A stretch of DNA of 64,000 bases from an uncultured Acidobacteriota bacterium (lineage in GTDB: Bacteria; Acidobacteriota; Thermoanaerobaculia; UBA5066; Gp7-AA6), in the NCBI GenBank assembly GCA_963763535.1, contig CAVXOX010000005.1:27605-91604 (forward strand). The letters run 5' to 3'. Position 1 is the stretch's first letter; each line of letters opens with the position of its first letter. Positions 31,633 to 36,901 of the stretch are shown one piece after another. The notes beneath the pieces were generated by a model. That model ran no database searches. It worked only from the letters and a program-made list of their open reading frames with translations, and was not told the origin of the DNA. The position numbers and the translations under genes are program-made.

Positions 31633-32082
31633 ATGCGCTTCGAGGGCACCGTCTCGATCAAGGCGTCGCGCAAGAAGGTCTGGGACTTCCTCACCGATCC
31701 GAACAAGGTCGCCGGCTGCGCGCCGGGACTCGAGAAGCTCGAGATCCTCGAGCCGGGCAAGCGCTTCCGCGCGACGACGTCGATCGGGTTCGGCGCCGTG
31801 AAGGCGCGGTTCGTCAACGACGTCGAGTGGGTGGAGATGGACGCGCCCGACTTCGCGCGCATGAAGGCGCACGGCACCGCGCCCGGGTCCGGCGTCGACG
31901 CGGAGAGCTCGATGCGTCTGACCGATGGTCAGGACGGCGCGACCGATCTCGCATGGAGCGCCGACGTCACGATCGTCGGCACGATCGCGAGTCTCGCCGC
32001 GCGGTTGATGGGCGGCGTGACGAAGAAGCTCACGGCGGCGTTCTTCGACTCGGTCCGCGAGGAGATCGAAGCGGACGCCTGA
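31633..32082 (+). CDS. coxG: CoxG-like SRPBCC family protein (carbon monoxide dehydrogenase subunit G)
   Basis: SRPBCC/CoxG fold, sitting at the head of the cox-like cluster. The start was set at ATG 31633. Confidence 0.75.
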   Translation: MRFEGTVSIKASRKKVWDFLTDPNKVAGCAPGLEKLEILEPGKRFRATTSIGFGAVKARFVNDVEWVEMDAPDFARMKAHGTAPGSGVDAESSMRLTDGQDGATDLAWSADVTIVGTIASLAARLMGGVTKKLTAAFFDSVREEIEADA

Positions 32083-32121
32083 GCGGTGTAGACTCCCGCC
32101 CGTTCGCACGGGAGGTTTTCC

Positions 32122-32586
32122 ATGCGTTTCCCCGTCTCGATCACCGTCAACGGCGCGCGGCGCCGCCACGAGCTCGAGCCGCGCCTCCTCCTGGTGCACT
32201 ACCTGCGCGAGACGCTGGGGTTGACCGGCACCAACGTCGGCTGCGACACGAGCCAGTGCGGCGCCTGCACCGTGCTCGTCGGCGGCAAGGCCGTCAAGTC
32301 GTGCACGATGCTCGCGGTCCAGGCCGACGGCGCGTCGATCACGACGATCGAGGGCCTCGCGAAGAACGGCAAGCTCCATCCGGTCCAGGAGGCGTTCCGC
32401 GAGAAGCACGGCCTCCAGTGCGGCTTCTGCACGCCCGGCATGGTGCTGACCGCCTGCCATCTCCTGGAGACCAACCCGAAGCCGACCGACGCCGAGATCC
32501 GGCTCGGCCTCGAAGGCAACCTGTGCCGCTGCACGGGCTACCAGAACATCGTCGCCGCCGTGAAGACCGCGGCGGCGCGGATGTAG
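32122..32586 (+). CDS. coxS: (2Fe-2S)-binding small subunit of the CO dehydrogenase / xanthine dehydrogenase family
   Basis: Two [2Fe-2S] motifs ([11 protein letters not shown] and CGFCTPGM...CRCTGY). Confidence 0.92.
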
Positions 32587-32596
32587 AGGAGGCGCC

Positions 32597-34950: not shown

Positions 34951-34953
34951 CAC

Positions 34954-35822
34954 ATGTATTCGGAGAGCTTCGATTACTTCCGCCCGAAGACCCTCGCCGA
35001 GGCATCGGCGCTGCTGAAGAAGCACAGGGGCGCGCGTCTCCTGGCCGGCGGCCACAGCCTGCTCCCCGCGATGAAGTTCCGCCTCGCGACCCCGAAGGCG
35101 CTCGTCGACATCGGCGCGATCAAGGGCCTGTCGGGCATCGCCCCGCGCGGCAAGTCGACGTGGATCGGCGCGATGACCGTCCACGCGGAGGTGGCGGGGT
35201 CGAAGCTGCTCCGGAAGTCCTGTCCGCTCCTGCCGGAAGCGGCGGCGCAGATCGGCGACCCGCAGGTGAGAAACCGCGGCACGATCGGCGGCTCGATCGC
35301 CCACGCGGATCCCGCCGCGGACTACCCGACGGCGCTCGTGGCGCTCGGCGCGACGGTTCTGGCGCGCGGCCCCCGCGGCGAGCGCAAGATCCCGGCCGAG
35401 GATTTCTTCGTCGACCTCTTCACGACGGCGCTGAAGCCGGGCGAGATCGTCACGGGCGTTCTCGTTCCCGTGTTCGGCAAGGGCACCGGCGCCGCGTACC
35501 TGAAGCACCCCCACCCCGCCTCGCGTTACGCCGTCGCGGCGGCCGCCGCCATCGTCGACGTCGCGAACGGCGTCTGCACGCGCGCGATCCTGGTGATCGG
35601 CGGCGTCTCCGCGACGCCGGTGCGCGTCCTGCGCGCCCAGGAGGCGCTCGTCGGCAGGAAGCCCGACGCCGCCCCCATCCAGTCGGCCGCCGCGCAGGTG
35701 GAGGCGCTGGTCCCCGACCCATGGGCGACGTCTATGCCTCGGGCGAGTTCCGGATCCACCTCGCGTCGGTCCTCGCGAAGCGGGCGCTGACGGCGGCCTT
35801 CGAGCGGGCGAAGAAGGCCTAG
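34954..35822 (+). pseudogene. coxM: FAD-binding medium subunit (CoxM-like) with a -1 frameshift near the C-terminus
   Basis: FAD-binding fold (LAGGHSLLP...GTIGGSIAHAD). The frame changes at the CCC run 35718-35720. The authentic C-terminus (PMGDVYASGEFRIHLASVLAKRALTAAFERAKKA) continues in the 0-frame to 35822. Confidence 0.75.
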
Positions 35823-35875
35823 CGCGGCGCCCCCGGCGCGATCGGGGTCACCGAACCGGACGATAATCGCTTTCC

Positions 35876-36901
35876 ATGCGCGACGTTCTCGACGACATCG
35901 AGCGGTGGCGCTCCGAGGGAAAGCCCGTGGCGCTCGCGACCGTGGTCGCGACATGGGGTTCGGCGCCGCGCGCGGTCGGCGGGAAGATGGCCGTGGCCGA
36001 TGGGAGGCACATCGCGGGCTCGGTCTCCGGCGGCTGCGTCGAGAACGCGGTGGCCGAGGCGGCCAGCGAGGTTCTCAAGACCGGTAAGCCGAGGCTCCTG
36101 AGGTTCGGCGTCTCCGACGATACGGCCTGGAGCGTCGGGCTCGCCTGCGGCGGCGCGATCGAGGTGTTCGTCGAGCGGCTCGCCGACTCGGCCTACGGCC
36201 TCGTCCGGGATGCGCTAAGGGCGGAGCGCTCTGTGGCCGTGACGACCGTCATCAACGGACCCGCGGACGCCGTGGGGCGCAAACTCGCGATCTCCGCCGA
36301 CGGGCGCACCGCCGGCGATCTCGGCGACCCGATCGATCGCGAGACGCGGGCCGCGCTCGCCGACGGTCGCAGCCGCCGGGTCACGATCGGAGAAGACGAG
36401 ATCTTCGTCGACGTGCTCCTCCCCTCCCCTCGCCTCGTGGTCGTCGGCGGCGTGCACATCGCGGTCGCGCTCGTGAAGCTCGCGCAGGCGCTCGGCTGGC
36501 GGACTGTGCTCGTCGATCCGCGGGAGGCGTTCGGCAACCGCTCGCGCTTTCCCGACGTGGACGACATCGTCTGGGACTGGCCGGACGCCGCCCTCGCGAA
36601 GCTCTCCCTGAACGAAGACACCGCGGTCGCCGTGCTGACCCACGACCCGAAGCTCGACGACCCCGCGGTCTCGGCCGCGCTCGCGAGCCCCGCCTTCTAC
36701 GTCGGCGCGCTCGGGAGCAGCCGGACGCAGGAGAAGCGCCGCAAACGCCTCCTCGCCGCCGGGCCTGACGGAAGGAGAGCTCTGGCGCGCCTCCACGCGC
36801 CGATCGGCCTCGACCTCGGCGGCCGCGCGCCGGAGGAGATCGCGCTCTCGGTCATGGCCCAGATCGTGGCGGCGCGCCACGGGAAGGCGAACGCTCCGTG
36901 A
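35876..36901 (+). CDS. xdhC: XdhC/CoxI family molybdoenzyme maturation (Mo-cofactor insertion) protein
   Basis: XdhC_CoxI N-terminal domain and XdhC_C Rossmann-like domain (VVVGGVHIAVAL). Confidence 0.85.
   Translation: MRDVLDDIERWRSEGKPVALATVVATWGSAPRAVGGKMAVADGRHIAGSVSGGCVENAVAEAASEVLKTGKPRLLRFGVSDDTAWSVGLACGGAIEVFVERLADSAYGLVRDALRAERSVAVTTVINGPADAVGRKLAISADGRTAGDLGDPIDRETRAALADGRSRRVTIGEDEIFVDVLLPSPRLVVVGGVHIAVALVKLAQALGWRTVLVDPREAFGNRSRFPDVDDIVWDWPDAALAKLSLNEDTAVAVLTHDPKLDDPAVSAALASPAFYVGALGSSRTQEKRRKRLLAAGPDGRRALARLHAPIGLDLGGRAPEEIALSVMAQIVAARHGKANAP

Follow-up and report, generated by a model that had tools for sequence, protein, structure and literature searches.

Operon organization

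The window, a 64,000-nucleotide stretch of DNA from a high-GC, Thermoanaerobaculia-like soil acidobacterium, carries an operon, coxG-coxS-coxL-coxM-xdhC, that encodes a molybdenum hydroxylase of the form II type within the xanthine-oxidase family. All five genes lie on the forward strand at the positions given in the original prediction; comparison with Pfam and NCBIfam models bore out their identities, and coxG, coxS and xdhC are single intact open reading frames. The window contains no second coxSLM copy. The first gene, coxG (31633–32082), encodes a 149-residue protein of the SRPBCC/CoxG family that matches Pfam PF06240 (COXG) over its full length (7.7e-28), equals its counterpart in relative L003 in length, and shows no frame-breaking indel when aligned with relatives. 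The small [2Fe-2S] subunit is encoded by coxS (32122–32586; 154 residues), in which Pfam identifies Fer2_2 and Fer2; both cysteine clusters appear in the translation, and the length matches that of relatives. The gene for the large molybdopterin subunit, coxL (32597–34950), yields 783 residues after removal of two extra bases, with the Pfam domains Ald_Xan_dh_C, MoCoBD_1 and MoCoBD_2, and the repaired protein is 94% identical to intact 783-residue proteins. The FAD subunit gene, coxM (34954–35822), yields 289 residues after one base is restored and carries FAD_binding_5 and CO_deh_flav_C. The last gene (35876–36901) encodes an xdhC/coxI-type Moco insertion chaperone of 341 residues with the Pfam domains XdhC_CoxI and XdhC_C, which scores 204 bits against NCBIfam NF045664, below the cut-off of 350. 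Every Pfam domain of the repaired proteins is full length, giving an a/b-hammerhead with two MoCo-binding domains, a subunit with 2x[2Fe-2S] and an FAD subunit, and the motifs GGGFG, AYRGAGR and GIGETG are all found in repaired CoxL.

Genes for E1 alpha/beta flank the operon on one side, and xdhC and a DUF3175 gene lie on the other. A functional link between the operon and the genes for E1 alpha/beta and methylmalonyl-CoA mutase that lie upstream of it was considered and rejected, as the adjacency is found only in close Thermoanaerobaculia relatives (22–27 of 80 loci) and is therefore uninformative on the substrate. Searches of the window returned zero Rfam hits, and hence no Moco riboswitch or other RNA element, and zero tRNAs.

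Molybdenum cofactor genes in the window

The claim that full Moco biosynthesis is encoded nearby stands for the genes it named and fails for the word full, as moaD, moaE and moeA are lacking from the window. On the forward strand, moaA (GTP 3',8-cyclase, 22126–23148) scores 352 against TIGR02666 (cut-off 284). The other genes are on the reverse strand: moaC at 24062–24640 (TIGR00581, 178 against 141.5), a protein with a moaB/mog-type molybdopterin adenylyltransferase domain at 21599–22105 (TIGR00177 molyb_syn, 103 against 85), and a mobA-like nucleotidyltransferase at 24610–25200, which matches MobA models best, in every case short of the cut-off, with the MocA model weaker still. The gene originally called mobB-like is a NamZ-MobB fusion at 19888–21675, also on the reverse strand, in which Pfam NamZ_N, NamZ_C and MobB are recognized and the MobB domain scores 99.8 against TIGR00176 (cut-off 76.2).

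Positions of the frame breaks

Two frameshifts in coxL and one in coxM had been predicted, and all three are seen in the frames of the open reading frames, in the GC3 plot and in the DNA alignment. As deposited, coxL falls into three segments: frame 2 (32597 to about 32725), frame 0 (32727–33644) and frame 1 (33646–34950, ending with the stop). The coxM gene is split into a segment at 34954–35720 and a segment in another frame at 35721–35822. The coding signal in the GC3 plot switches frame exactly at the three break points. These were mapped by DNA alignment with four relatives (L001–L004) of about 90% nucleotide identity. At the first break (32722–32724) an extra C at 32724 turns CC into CCC, the relatives reading TCG CCG TAC. 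The second (33642–33646) has CGGCG against CGCG or AAGG in the relatives, the extra base being 33645 (CGC to CGGC); CoxL of the relatives, at 783 residues, is one residue shorter than a naive three-frame join of coxL in the window. The third, in coxM (35718–35723), reads GACCC-ATGGGC against GACCCGATGGGC in the relatives, one G having been lost at 35720 (CCCGATG to CCCATG). A fourth missing G, in the coxL-coxM spacer at 34953, is harmless. Each break thus amounts to one base, the alignment with relatives shows no other frame-breaking change or stop in the 3.2 kb, and the repaired reading frames contain no in-frame stops.

Assignment to form II

In the literature, form II is defined by the motif AYRGAGR in the active-site loop of CoxL. 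The motif is present at 33688–33708 on the forward strand, residues 364–370 of the repaired protein, where it aligns with the AYRGAGR of references from Ruegeria, Microvirga and Halococcus and places glycine at the position of the form I copper-ligand cysteine. Both this loop and the S-L-M gene order are read in the sequence as originally described, and the order coxS-coxL-coxM recurs in 76–77 of 80 related loci. Together with the upstream coxG, the downstream xdhC and the placement of CoxL as a sister of form I in the tree, these features uphold a form-II-type assignment within the xanthine-oxidase family.

In a neighbor-joining tree, a distance method only (23 sequences, 778 columns, 200 bootstraps; classical Bradyrhizobium and R. 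pomeroyi form II references not included), repaired CoxL groups with the AYRGAGR proteins of the coxG-S-L-M clusters of Ruegeria, Microvirga and Halococcus at 94% bootstrap support. The form I clade (100%) is sister to this AYRGAGR clade, and the two together are supported at 81%. CoxL lies well apart from ordinary xanthine and aldehyde dehydrogenases, so the placement among them that would have spoken against the original prediction was not observed.

The hallmarks of form I are an AY(R/x)CSFR loop with the copper-ligating cysteine, a TIGR02416 score of at least 991, and the order coxM-S-L with coxD/E/F, and the operon fails on all of them. CoxL scores 748 bits against TIGR02416, below the equivalog cut-off of 991 (form I control, 1620), and 738 against NF041018, likewise below its cut-off; form II references show the same pattern. 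Within the window, no coxD/E/F-type MoxR or VWA genes adjoin the operon.

Origin of the frame breaks

Single-base errors in the consensus of a long-read metagenome assembly most likely account for the breaks in coxL and coxM (probability roughly 0.72), and the cell probably has an intact form II operon. The description of the cluster as apparently inactivated therefore does not hold up: the repaired genes show no relaxed selection, similar indels occur in unrelated genes of the window, and Nanopore-only metagenome-assembled genomes (MAGs) carry the same defect, which in combination makes consensus error the likelier cause.

A frame disrupted by three single-base indels is a mark of a pseudogene; signs of relaxed selection, a further mark, are absent. 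Relatives at 79–94% amino-acid identity have intact CoxL of 782–786 residues (one of 797) and CoxM of 289. GC3 stays at 0.96–1.0 in all segments, across every frame switch. At 307 alignment columns without variation among the other 120 sequences, repaired CoxL keeps the invariant residue in 306 and has one private change; intact CoxL homologues have 0–5 such changes (mean 0.4). The dN/dS between the window and intact relatives is 0.11–0.13 for coxL and 0.14–0.15 for coxM, and among the intact relatives it is 0.10 and 0.08–0.21, respectively.

Indels of 1–2 bases are also found in a PhzF-like gene at 23727 and in a LytTR regulator at about 48150 and at 48027 and 48013, and a GT4 glycosyltransferase gene near 62920 is probably broken by an indel too. 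All of the coding lesions in the window (8 of 8) are indels, with 0 nonsense mutations. Four open reading frame products of the window, including a 408-residue CoxL fragment, are present in a protein collection from a 1,299,824-bp contig with NCBI and ENA as sources; the contig encodes CoxS, XdhC and MoaA exactly as in the window. Among the clade homologues with this pair of sources, all those that could be matched to a fetched locus are from Microflora Danica Nanopore MAGs. These rest on Nanopore reads only, with assembly by Flye and a single round of Medaka polishing, and by analogy the window itself presumably comes from a long-read, Nanopore-type platform. In the Nanopore-only MAGs of the clade the same genes carry 1–7 frameshifts per 11–17 kb, whereas most Illumina MAGs have none; four of nine such Nanopore loci checked (8–17 kb) show 3–7; one such locus, L039, has one frameshift in coxL and two in coxM. 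Among about 60 Illumina loci in a coxL/coxM scan of 80 loci, 2 have a frameshift. Of the indels, just two or three are in homopolymer runs of at least 3 bases, an incomplete match to the classic Nanopore signature.

Alternatively, the frameshifts could be real, the form II enzyme having been lost very recently through three independent single-base indels as part of a wider decay that includes the phzF, LytTR and glycosyltransferase genes. We regard this as unlikely. The indels do stand in the deposited sequence, the gene caller took the 408-residue CoxL fragment as a gene, and indels are mildly more frequent in coxL and coxM than elsewhere in the window, with three of the roughly eight coding indels in 3.2 kb out of about 57 kb of coding sequence. 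This clustering has a nominal P of about 0.008, or about 0.14 when any 3.2-kb stretch is allowed for; it is mild but could be a trace of real decay of the operon. In each of two Illumina MAGs of relatives, L033 and L041, coxM or coxL has one frameshift, which makes occasional real loss conceivable. However, retention of 306 of 307 invariant residues and dN/dS of about 0.12 speak against relaxed selection, and three hits in one operon with neither damage to a conserved residue nor a stop codon would be an unlikely course of natural decay. Moreover, roughly 5 of 60 genes are broken, all of them by indels, and three of these crowd into 140 nt of the LytTR regulator, a pattern that resembles a local loss of consensus quality; the enzyme is intact in nearly all of the 80 related loci. 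Two exact-pattern scans of JGI metagenome contigs for sites 1 and 3, with the base present or absent, found no same-strain copy, and a scan of GTDB representatives gave relatives of at most 94% identity.

Function and expression of the enzyme

By analogy with the family, XdhC would insert the molybdenum cofactor into CoxL, and the substrate would be oxidized at a molybdenum center lined by the AYRGAGR loop, GGGFG and the catalytic glutamate of GIGETG. Electrons would then travel via both [2Fe-2S] clusters of CoxS to the CoxM FAD and on to quinone, a step probably aided by the SRPBCC protein CoxG. The original prediction described the substrate of form II enzymes as generally unresolved, which is still how the function is described in papers up to 2026. 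As judged from the sequence, CO is probably not the physiological substrate, because the copper-binding cysteine of form I is absent; our best guess is a small organic compound such as an aldehyde.

That the enzyme is instead a true, perhaps low-affinity, aerobic CO dehydrogenase and not a hydroxylase of organic substrates seems doubtful, and we give it little weight. Its clade is sister to form I, its best match among solved structures is M. smegmatis CoxL (8UEM, 710 bits), form I clusters likewise contain coxG, and CO oxidation by form II has been proposed in older literature. These resemblances are set against the missing copper-ligating cysteine of the AYxCSFR loop, the TIGR02416 score below its cut-off, the lack of adjoining coxD/E/F-type genes in the window, and reviews that deem CO probably not the physiological substrate of form II.

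It is highly improbable that the frame changes are deliberate, through programmed ribosomal frameshifting, transcriptional slippage or subunits split as in nicotinate dehydrogenase: judged from the sequence alone, tRNA-Pro slippage might in principle occur at site 1 (CCC GUA) and site 3 (C CCA), but the sites would need shifts in differing directions and lack slippery heptamers, none is common to any relative, the relatives are in frame at all three, and the frameshifts of other MAGs fall elsewhere. A programmed shift or a common hot spot was rejected: L039 and L041 likewise have coxL breaks around codons 38–50, but at other nucleotides. A split-subunit arrangement was rejected because no start codon would give a translated AYRGAGR Moco loop, the first start codon in that frame (33724) lying after the motif (33688–33708).

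Implications

Form II coxSLM clusters are common and long described, and the operon is an ordinary and widely conserved one. Counterparts that are intact and 94% identical are public, the exact sequence of the window is already deposited, and the window adds nothing on what form II enzymes oxidize. Conservation across the Acidobacteriota and Gemmatimonadota of the subclade is very strong (60–94% identity, dN/dS about 0.1), which suggests an important function for its form II enzyme. The practical consequence is one of data quality: in long-read-only MAGs of high-GC soil bacteria, apparent pseudogenes, even those hit several times, need read support before they are read biologically. Were the indels real, the strain would be a natural knockout, and comparing its niche and gene content with those of intact relatives could hint at the role or substrate of form II; one member of a lineage in which strong purifying selection otherwise keeps the enzyme almost universally would have dropped it very fast and by multiple hits.

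Comparison with known systems

The nearest described systems are the form II coxG-coxS-coxL-coxM clusters of the Ruegeria sp. SCSIO 43209 plasmid (NZ_CP065360.1), Microvirga ossetica (NZ_CP016618.1) and Halococcus dombrowskii (NZ_CP095007.1), and the form II of Aminobacter carboxidus. Form II clusters share with the window AYRGAGR, the S-L-M order, coxG directly upstream, an XdhC-family gene nearby and one tree clade. Identity to the form II references is only 47–53% at the amino-acid level, and unlike them the window sits in a tight Acidobacteriota/Gemmatimonadota subclade (60–94% identity) and has broken reading frames as deposited. Microvirga and Halococcus have adjacent MoxR/VWA (coxD/E-like) genes, whereas the window has none.

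Form I Mo-Cu CO dehydrogenase, exemplified by CoxMSL of Afipia/Oligotropha carboxidovorans (PDB 1N5W) and the M. smegmatis enzyme (PDB 8UEM), has the same three-subunit architecture and cofactor domains. Identity to the window is 41–48%, and both have a CoxG partner and an XdhC/CoxI-type gene. The two differ in the loop (AY(R/A)CSFR in form I, AYRGAGR without the copper-binding cysteine here), in gene order (M-S-L versus S-L-M) and in coxDEF, which form I has and which is not adjacent here. Models of archaeal glyceraldehyde dehydrogenase (NF041018/19/20; alpha, beta and gamma) are the best or near-best for all three subunits, with scores of 738.5, 276.9 and 249.3 bits, none of which reaches its curated cut-off (790, 350 and 290, respectively); because other form II references score alike, the likeness is one of family and not of equivalence. 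Quinoline 2-oxidoreductase (PDB 1T3Q, 518 bits) and 6-hydroxypseudooxynicotine dehydrogenase (PDB 7DQX, 443 bits) are three-subunit molybdenum hydroxylases of the same superfamily and lie further away than form I does. Homology of the enzyme with solved structures is unambiguous. A homologue on the Arthrobacter nicotine plasmid, with the loop AFRGVGY, falls outside the clade that unites form I and form II.

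The coxG-S-L-M-xdhC cluster and its frame breaks

The cluster is encoded on the plus strand and comprises coxG (31633-32082; Pfam COXG), coxS (32122-32586; Fer2_2 and Fer2), the large-subunit gene coxL (start 32597, stop 34950; Ald_Xan_dh_C, MoCoBD_1 and MoCoBD_2), the medium-subunit gene coxM (start 34954, end 35822; FAD_binding_5 and CO_deh_flav_C) and xdhC (35876-36901; XdhC_CoxI and XdhC_C), with coxG, coxS and xdhC recovered as ORF calls. Pfam and NCBIfam profiles confirm all five identities, and together with the ORFs and reading frames they bear out the original prediction of this five-gene cluster as written. 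The closest public CoxL sequences are intact 783-aa proteins, 92-94% identical, from Thermoanaerobaculia/Acidobacteriota MAGs. On four of their contigs, which were fetched, the genes for methylmalonyl-CoA mutase, E1 alpha and E1 beta lie together with coxG, coxS, coxL (783 aa) and coxM (289 aa). Across 80 related loci, coxS-L-M is present in 76-77, coxG in 58 and xdhC in 37, and only close Thermoanaerobaculia relatives have E1 alpha/beta and mutase genes beside coxS-L-M.

In three-frame translation, coxL begins in frame 2, moves into frame 0 at about 32725 and continues in frame 1 from about 33645; coxM leaves its frame near 35720 and ends at 35822. The G+C content of the window is ~71%, and the third-position G+C signal (0.96-1.0) switches frame exactly at these three points, with no further jump in the frame plot of the cox cluster. 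Alignment of 3.2 kb of DNA with the four relatives (~90% identity) revealed length differences from all of them at four places only: an extra C at 32724 (window TCGCCCGTAC, relatives TCGC-CGTAC), an extra base at 33645 (window CCGGCGAGG, relatives CCGC-GAGG), a missing G at 34953 in the 3-4-nt coxL-coxM spacer, and a missing G at 35720 (window GACCC-ATGG, relatives GACCCGATGG). Mending these indels yields a 783-aa CoxL and a 289-aa CoxM free of internal stops. The two frameshifts in coxL and one in coxM that had been proposed are indeed present in the sequence. Both single-G deletions, the one before the coxM ATG and the one inside coxM, turn CGATG into CATG, either by chance or perhaps through a basecalling error tied to this context.

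Origin of the frameshifts

The coxL and coxM frameshifts are best read as consensus errors of the assembly (probability roughly 0.7), because the repaired genes show no relaxed selection, indels also occur in non-cox genes, the provenance fits, and relatives display the same pattern. The apparent inactivation that made this operon seem interesting is thus most likely an artefact. Repaired CoxL departs from the consensus at 1 of 307 columns invariant in the other 120 of 121 aligned sequences, where intact homologues depart at 0-5 (mean 0.4). Compared with intact relatives, the window gives dN/dS values of 0.11-0.13 for coxL and 0.14-0.15 for coxM; among the intact relatives themselves the values are 0.10 and 0.08-0.21. 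There is no sign of relaxed selection on either repaired gene, and neither carries the damaging substitutions usually expected beside three separate neutral indels.

Comparable damage is found elsewhere in the window. The PhzF-like gene (23153-24050, minus strand) carries a surplus base at 23727, where it reads GGGG and relatives read GG; after repair its product covers the whole of PF02567. A LytTR-type response regulator gene (47945-48700, minus strand) carries three insertions within ~140 nt (+1 near 48150 and, both in G runs, +1 near 48027 and +2 near 48013) that create an in-frame TAG; once repaired, the regulator matches its relatives (ADGSRVPVSREGH) and the LytTR domain end to end, and consensus quality seems to be reduced locally at this site. 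A GT4 glycosyltransferase gene (61866-63013, plus strand) appears to have lost one base near 62920 (about 62900-62940), since both the coding signal in the frame plot and the C-terminal residues NEIRALFSTDDTLAFYEATY continue in another frame. The tally over 64 kb is ~8 coding indels in five broken genes of ~60, and none of the five is broken by a nonsense mutation. Adjoining the LytTR gene, ~5.5 kb (42420-47945) of lower G+C (64-65%) is absent from the syntenic related loci L049 and L011 and is possibly an insertion; it contains a 1163-aa Ser/Thr kinase rich in TPR repeats (42825-46316, plus strand), two ORFs without a Pfam match (46387-47330, minus strand) and apparently non-coding DNA.

With regard to provenance, the exact products of four window ORFs, the 408-aa CoxL fragment among them, occur in the protein collection under one 1,299,824-bp contig with NCBI and ENA as its source pair. 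Among the clade homologues with this source pair, all those that could be assigned to a fetched locus come from Microflora Danica MAGs, which are Nanopore-only Flye assemblies given one round of Medaka polishing to reduce indel errors. We infer the window's own sequencing platform from these homologues. Nine Nanopore MAG loci of the same clade were checked for frameshifts across 8-17 kb of the conserved genes ribBA, mutase, band-7, xdhC, coxL and coxM, and four carry 3-7 of them per 11-17 kb: four in L011, seven in L023, six in L039 and three in L069, at positions that differ from those in the window. Of the six in L039, coxL has one and coxM two (L039 10001-13300). In a scan of all 80 loci, coxL/coxM frameshifts were found in 2 of ~60 Illumina loci.

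The presence of homopolymers at only some indel sites and the mild clustering of indels in coxL and coxM (nominal P ~0.008, or ~0.14 allowing for any 3.2-kb stretch) count against the error reading. A real, very recent inactivation of the two genes is nevertheless unlikely, given the selective constraint on both and the similar indels that break other genes of the window. Programmed frameshifting was rejected, as the sites are unconserved, shifts in different directions would be needed and slippery motifs are absent; so was a split large subunit, since translation in the third frame could start no earlier than 33724, downstream of the AYRGAGR loop.

Molybdenum cofactor genes and other neighbours

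Profile matches confirmed moaA (22126-23148), moaC (24062-24640), a mobA-like gene (24610-25200) and a moaB/mog-type gene (21599-22105), and located a MobB domain at the C-terminus of a minus-strand ORF (19888-21675) that also encodes the N and C domains of a NamZ exo-beta-N-acetylmuramidase. This single ORF may be a true fusion or the product of a lost stop or indel. The ~60 window ORFs include no recognized moaD, moaE or moeA; therefore, of the full Moco biosynthesis originally proposed, these components stand and completeness is not established for the window. As it reaches no curated cut-off, the mobA-like protein cannot be assigned as either a guanylyl- or a cytidylyl-transferase. Directly after xdhC, on the minus strand, come genes for a DUF3175 protein (36905-37264) and a PIG3-type quinone oxidoreductase (37228-38199), neither of which was found in related loci by tblastn. 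In 16 related loci a 768-aa ORF without a Pfam or NCBIfam family (38618-40924, minus strand) is conserved on the downstream side of xdhC.

Proposed mechanism and enzyme class

By analogy with the enzyme family, XdhC would mature the molybdenum cofactor and insert it into CoxL, where the substrate would be oxidized at the Mo centre; CoxL has GGGFG, AYRGAGR and GIGETG with its catalytic Glu. Electrons would then pass via CoxS, with its two [2Fe-2S] clusters and intact Cys motifs, to FAD in CoxM. CoxG of form I has been shown to be a quinone-binding partner that passes electrons to the respiratory chain, and a similar quinone-linked carrier role is plausible for the window CoxG, a 149-aa SRPBCC protein without an obvious C-terminal membrane helix. 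The substrate cannot be read from gene context.

Recent papers define form II by coxSLM order and AYRGAGR, and consider its activity unresolved, with CO probably not the physiological substrate. Neighbour joining of 23 sequences over 778 columns, with 200 bootstrap replicates, placed the window CoxL in one clade (94%) with homologues from Acidobacteriota, Gemmatimonadota, Chloroflexi and other MAGs and with the Ruegeria, Microvirga and Halococcus references. Form I (100%) is the sister of this AYRGAGR clade, with joint support of 81%, and outside both lie homologues from an Arthrobacter nicotine plasmid, Agrobacterium, Bacillus and Sinorhizobium pSymB; the window CoxL was thus not placed among ordinary xanthine or aldehyde dehydrogenases. 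It scores 748 bits against the form I model TIGR02416 (cut-off 991; form I control 1620), 738.5 bits against the glyceraldehyde dehydrogenase alpha model (cut-off 790) and at most 436 bits against xanthine dehydrogenase models. The loop, the tree, these NCBIfam scores and the published definition therefore uphold the earlier assignment to form II. The operon is an ordinary form II CODH-like operon, correctly described at the outset. Whereas the form I enzymes of Afipia carboxidovorans, Bradyrhizobium betae, Hydrogenophaga pseudoflava and M. smegmatis carry AY(R/A)CSFR, the window loop (33688-33708) reads AYRGAGR and aligns with the AYRGAGR of plasmid coxG-S-L-M clusters in Ruegeria, Microvirga and Halococcus, and the form II references show the same pattern of NCBIfam scores as the window CoxL.
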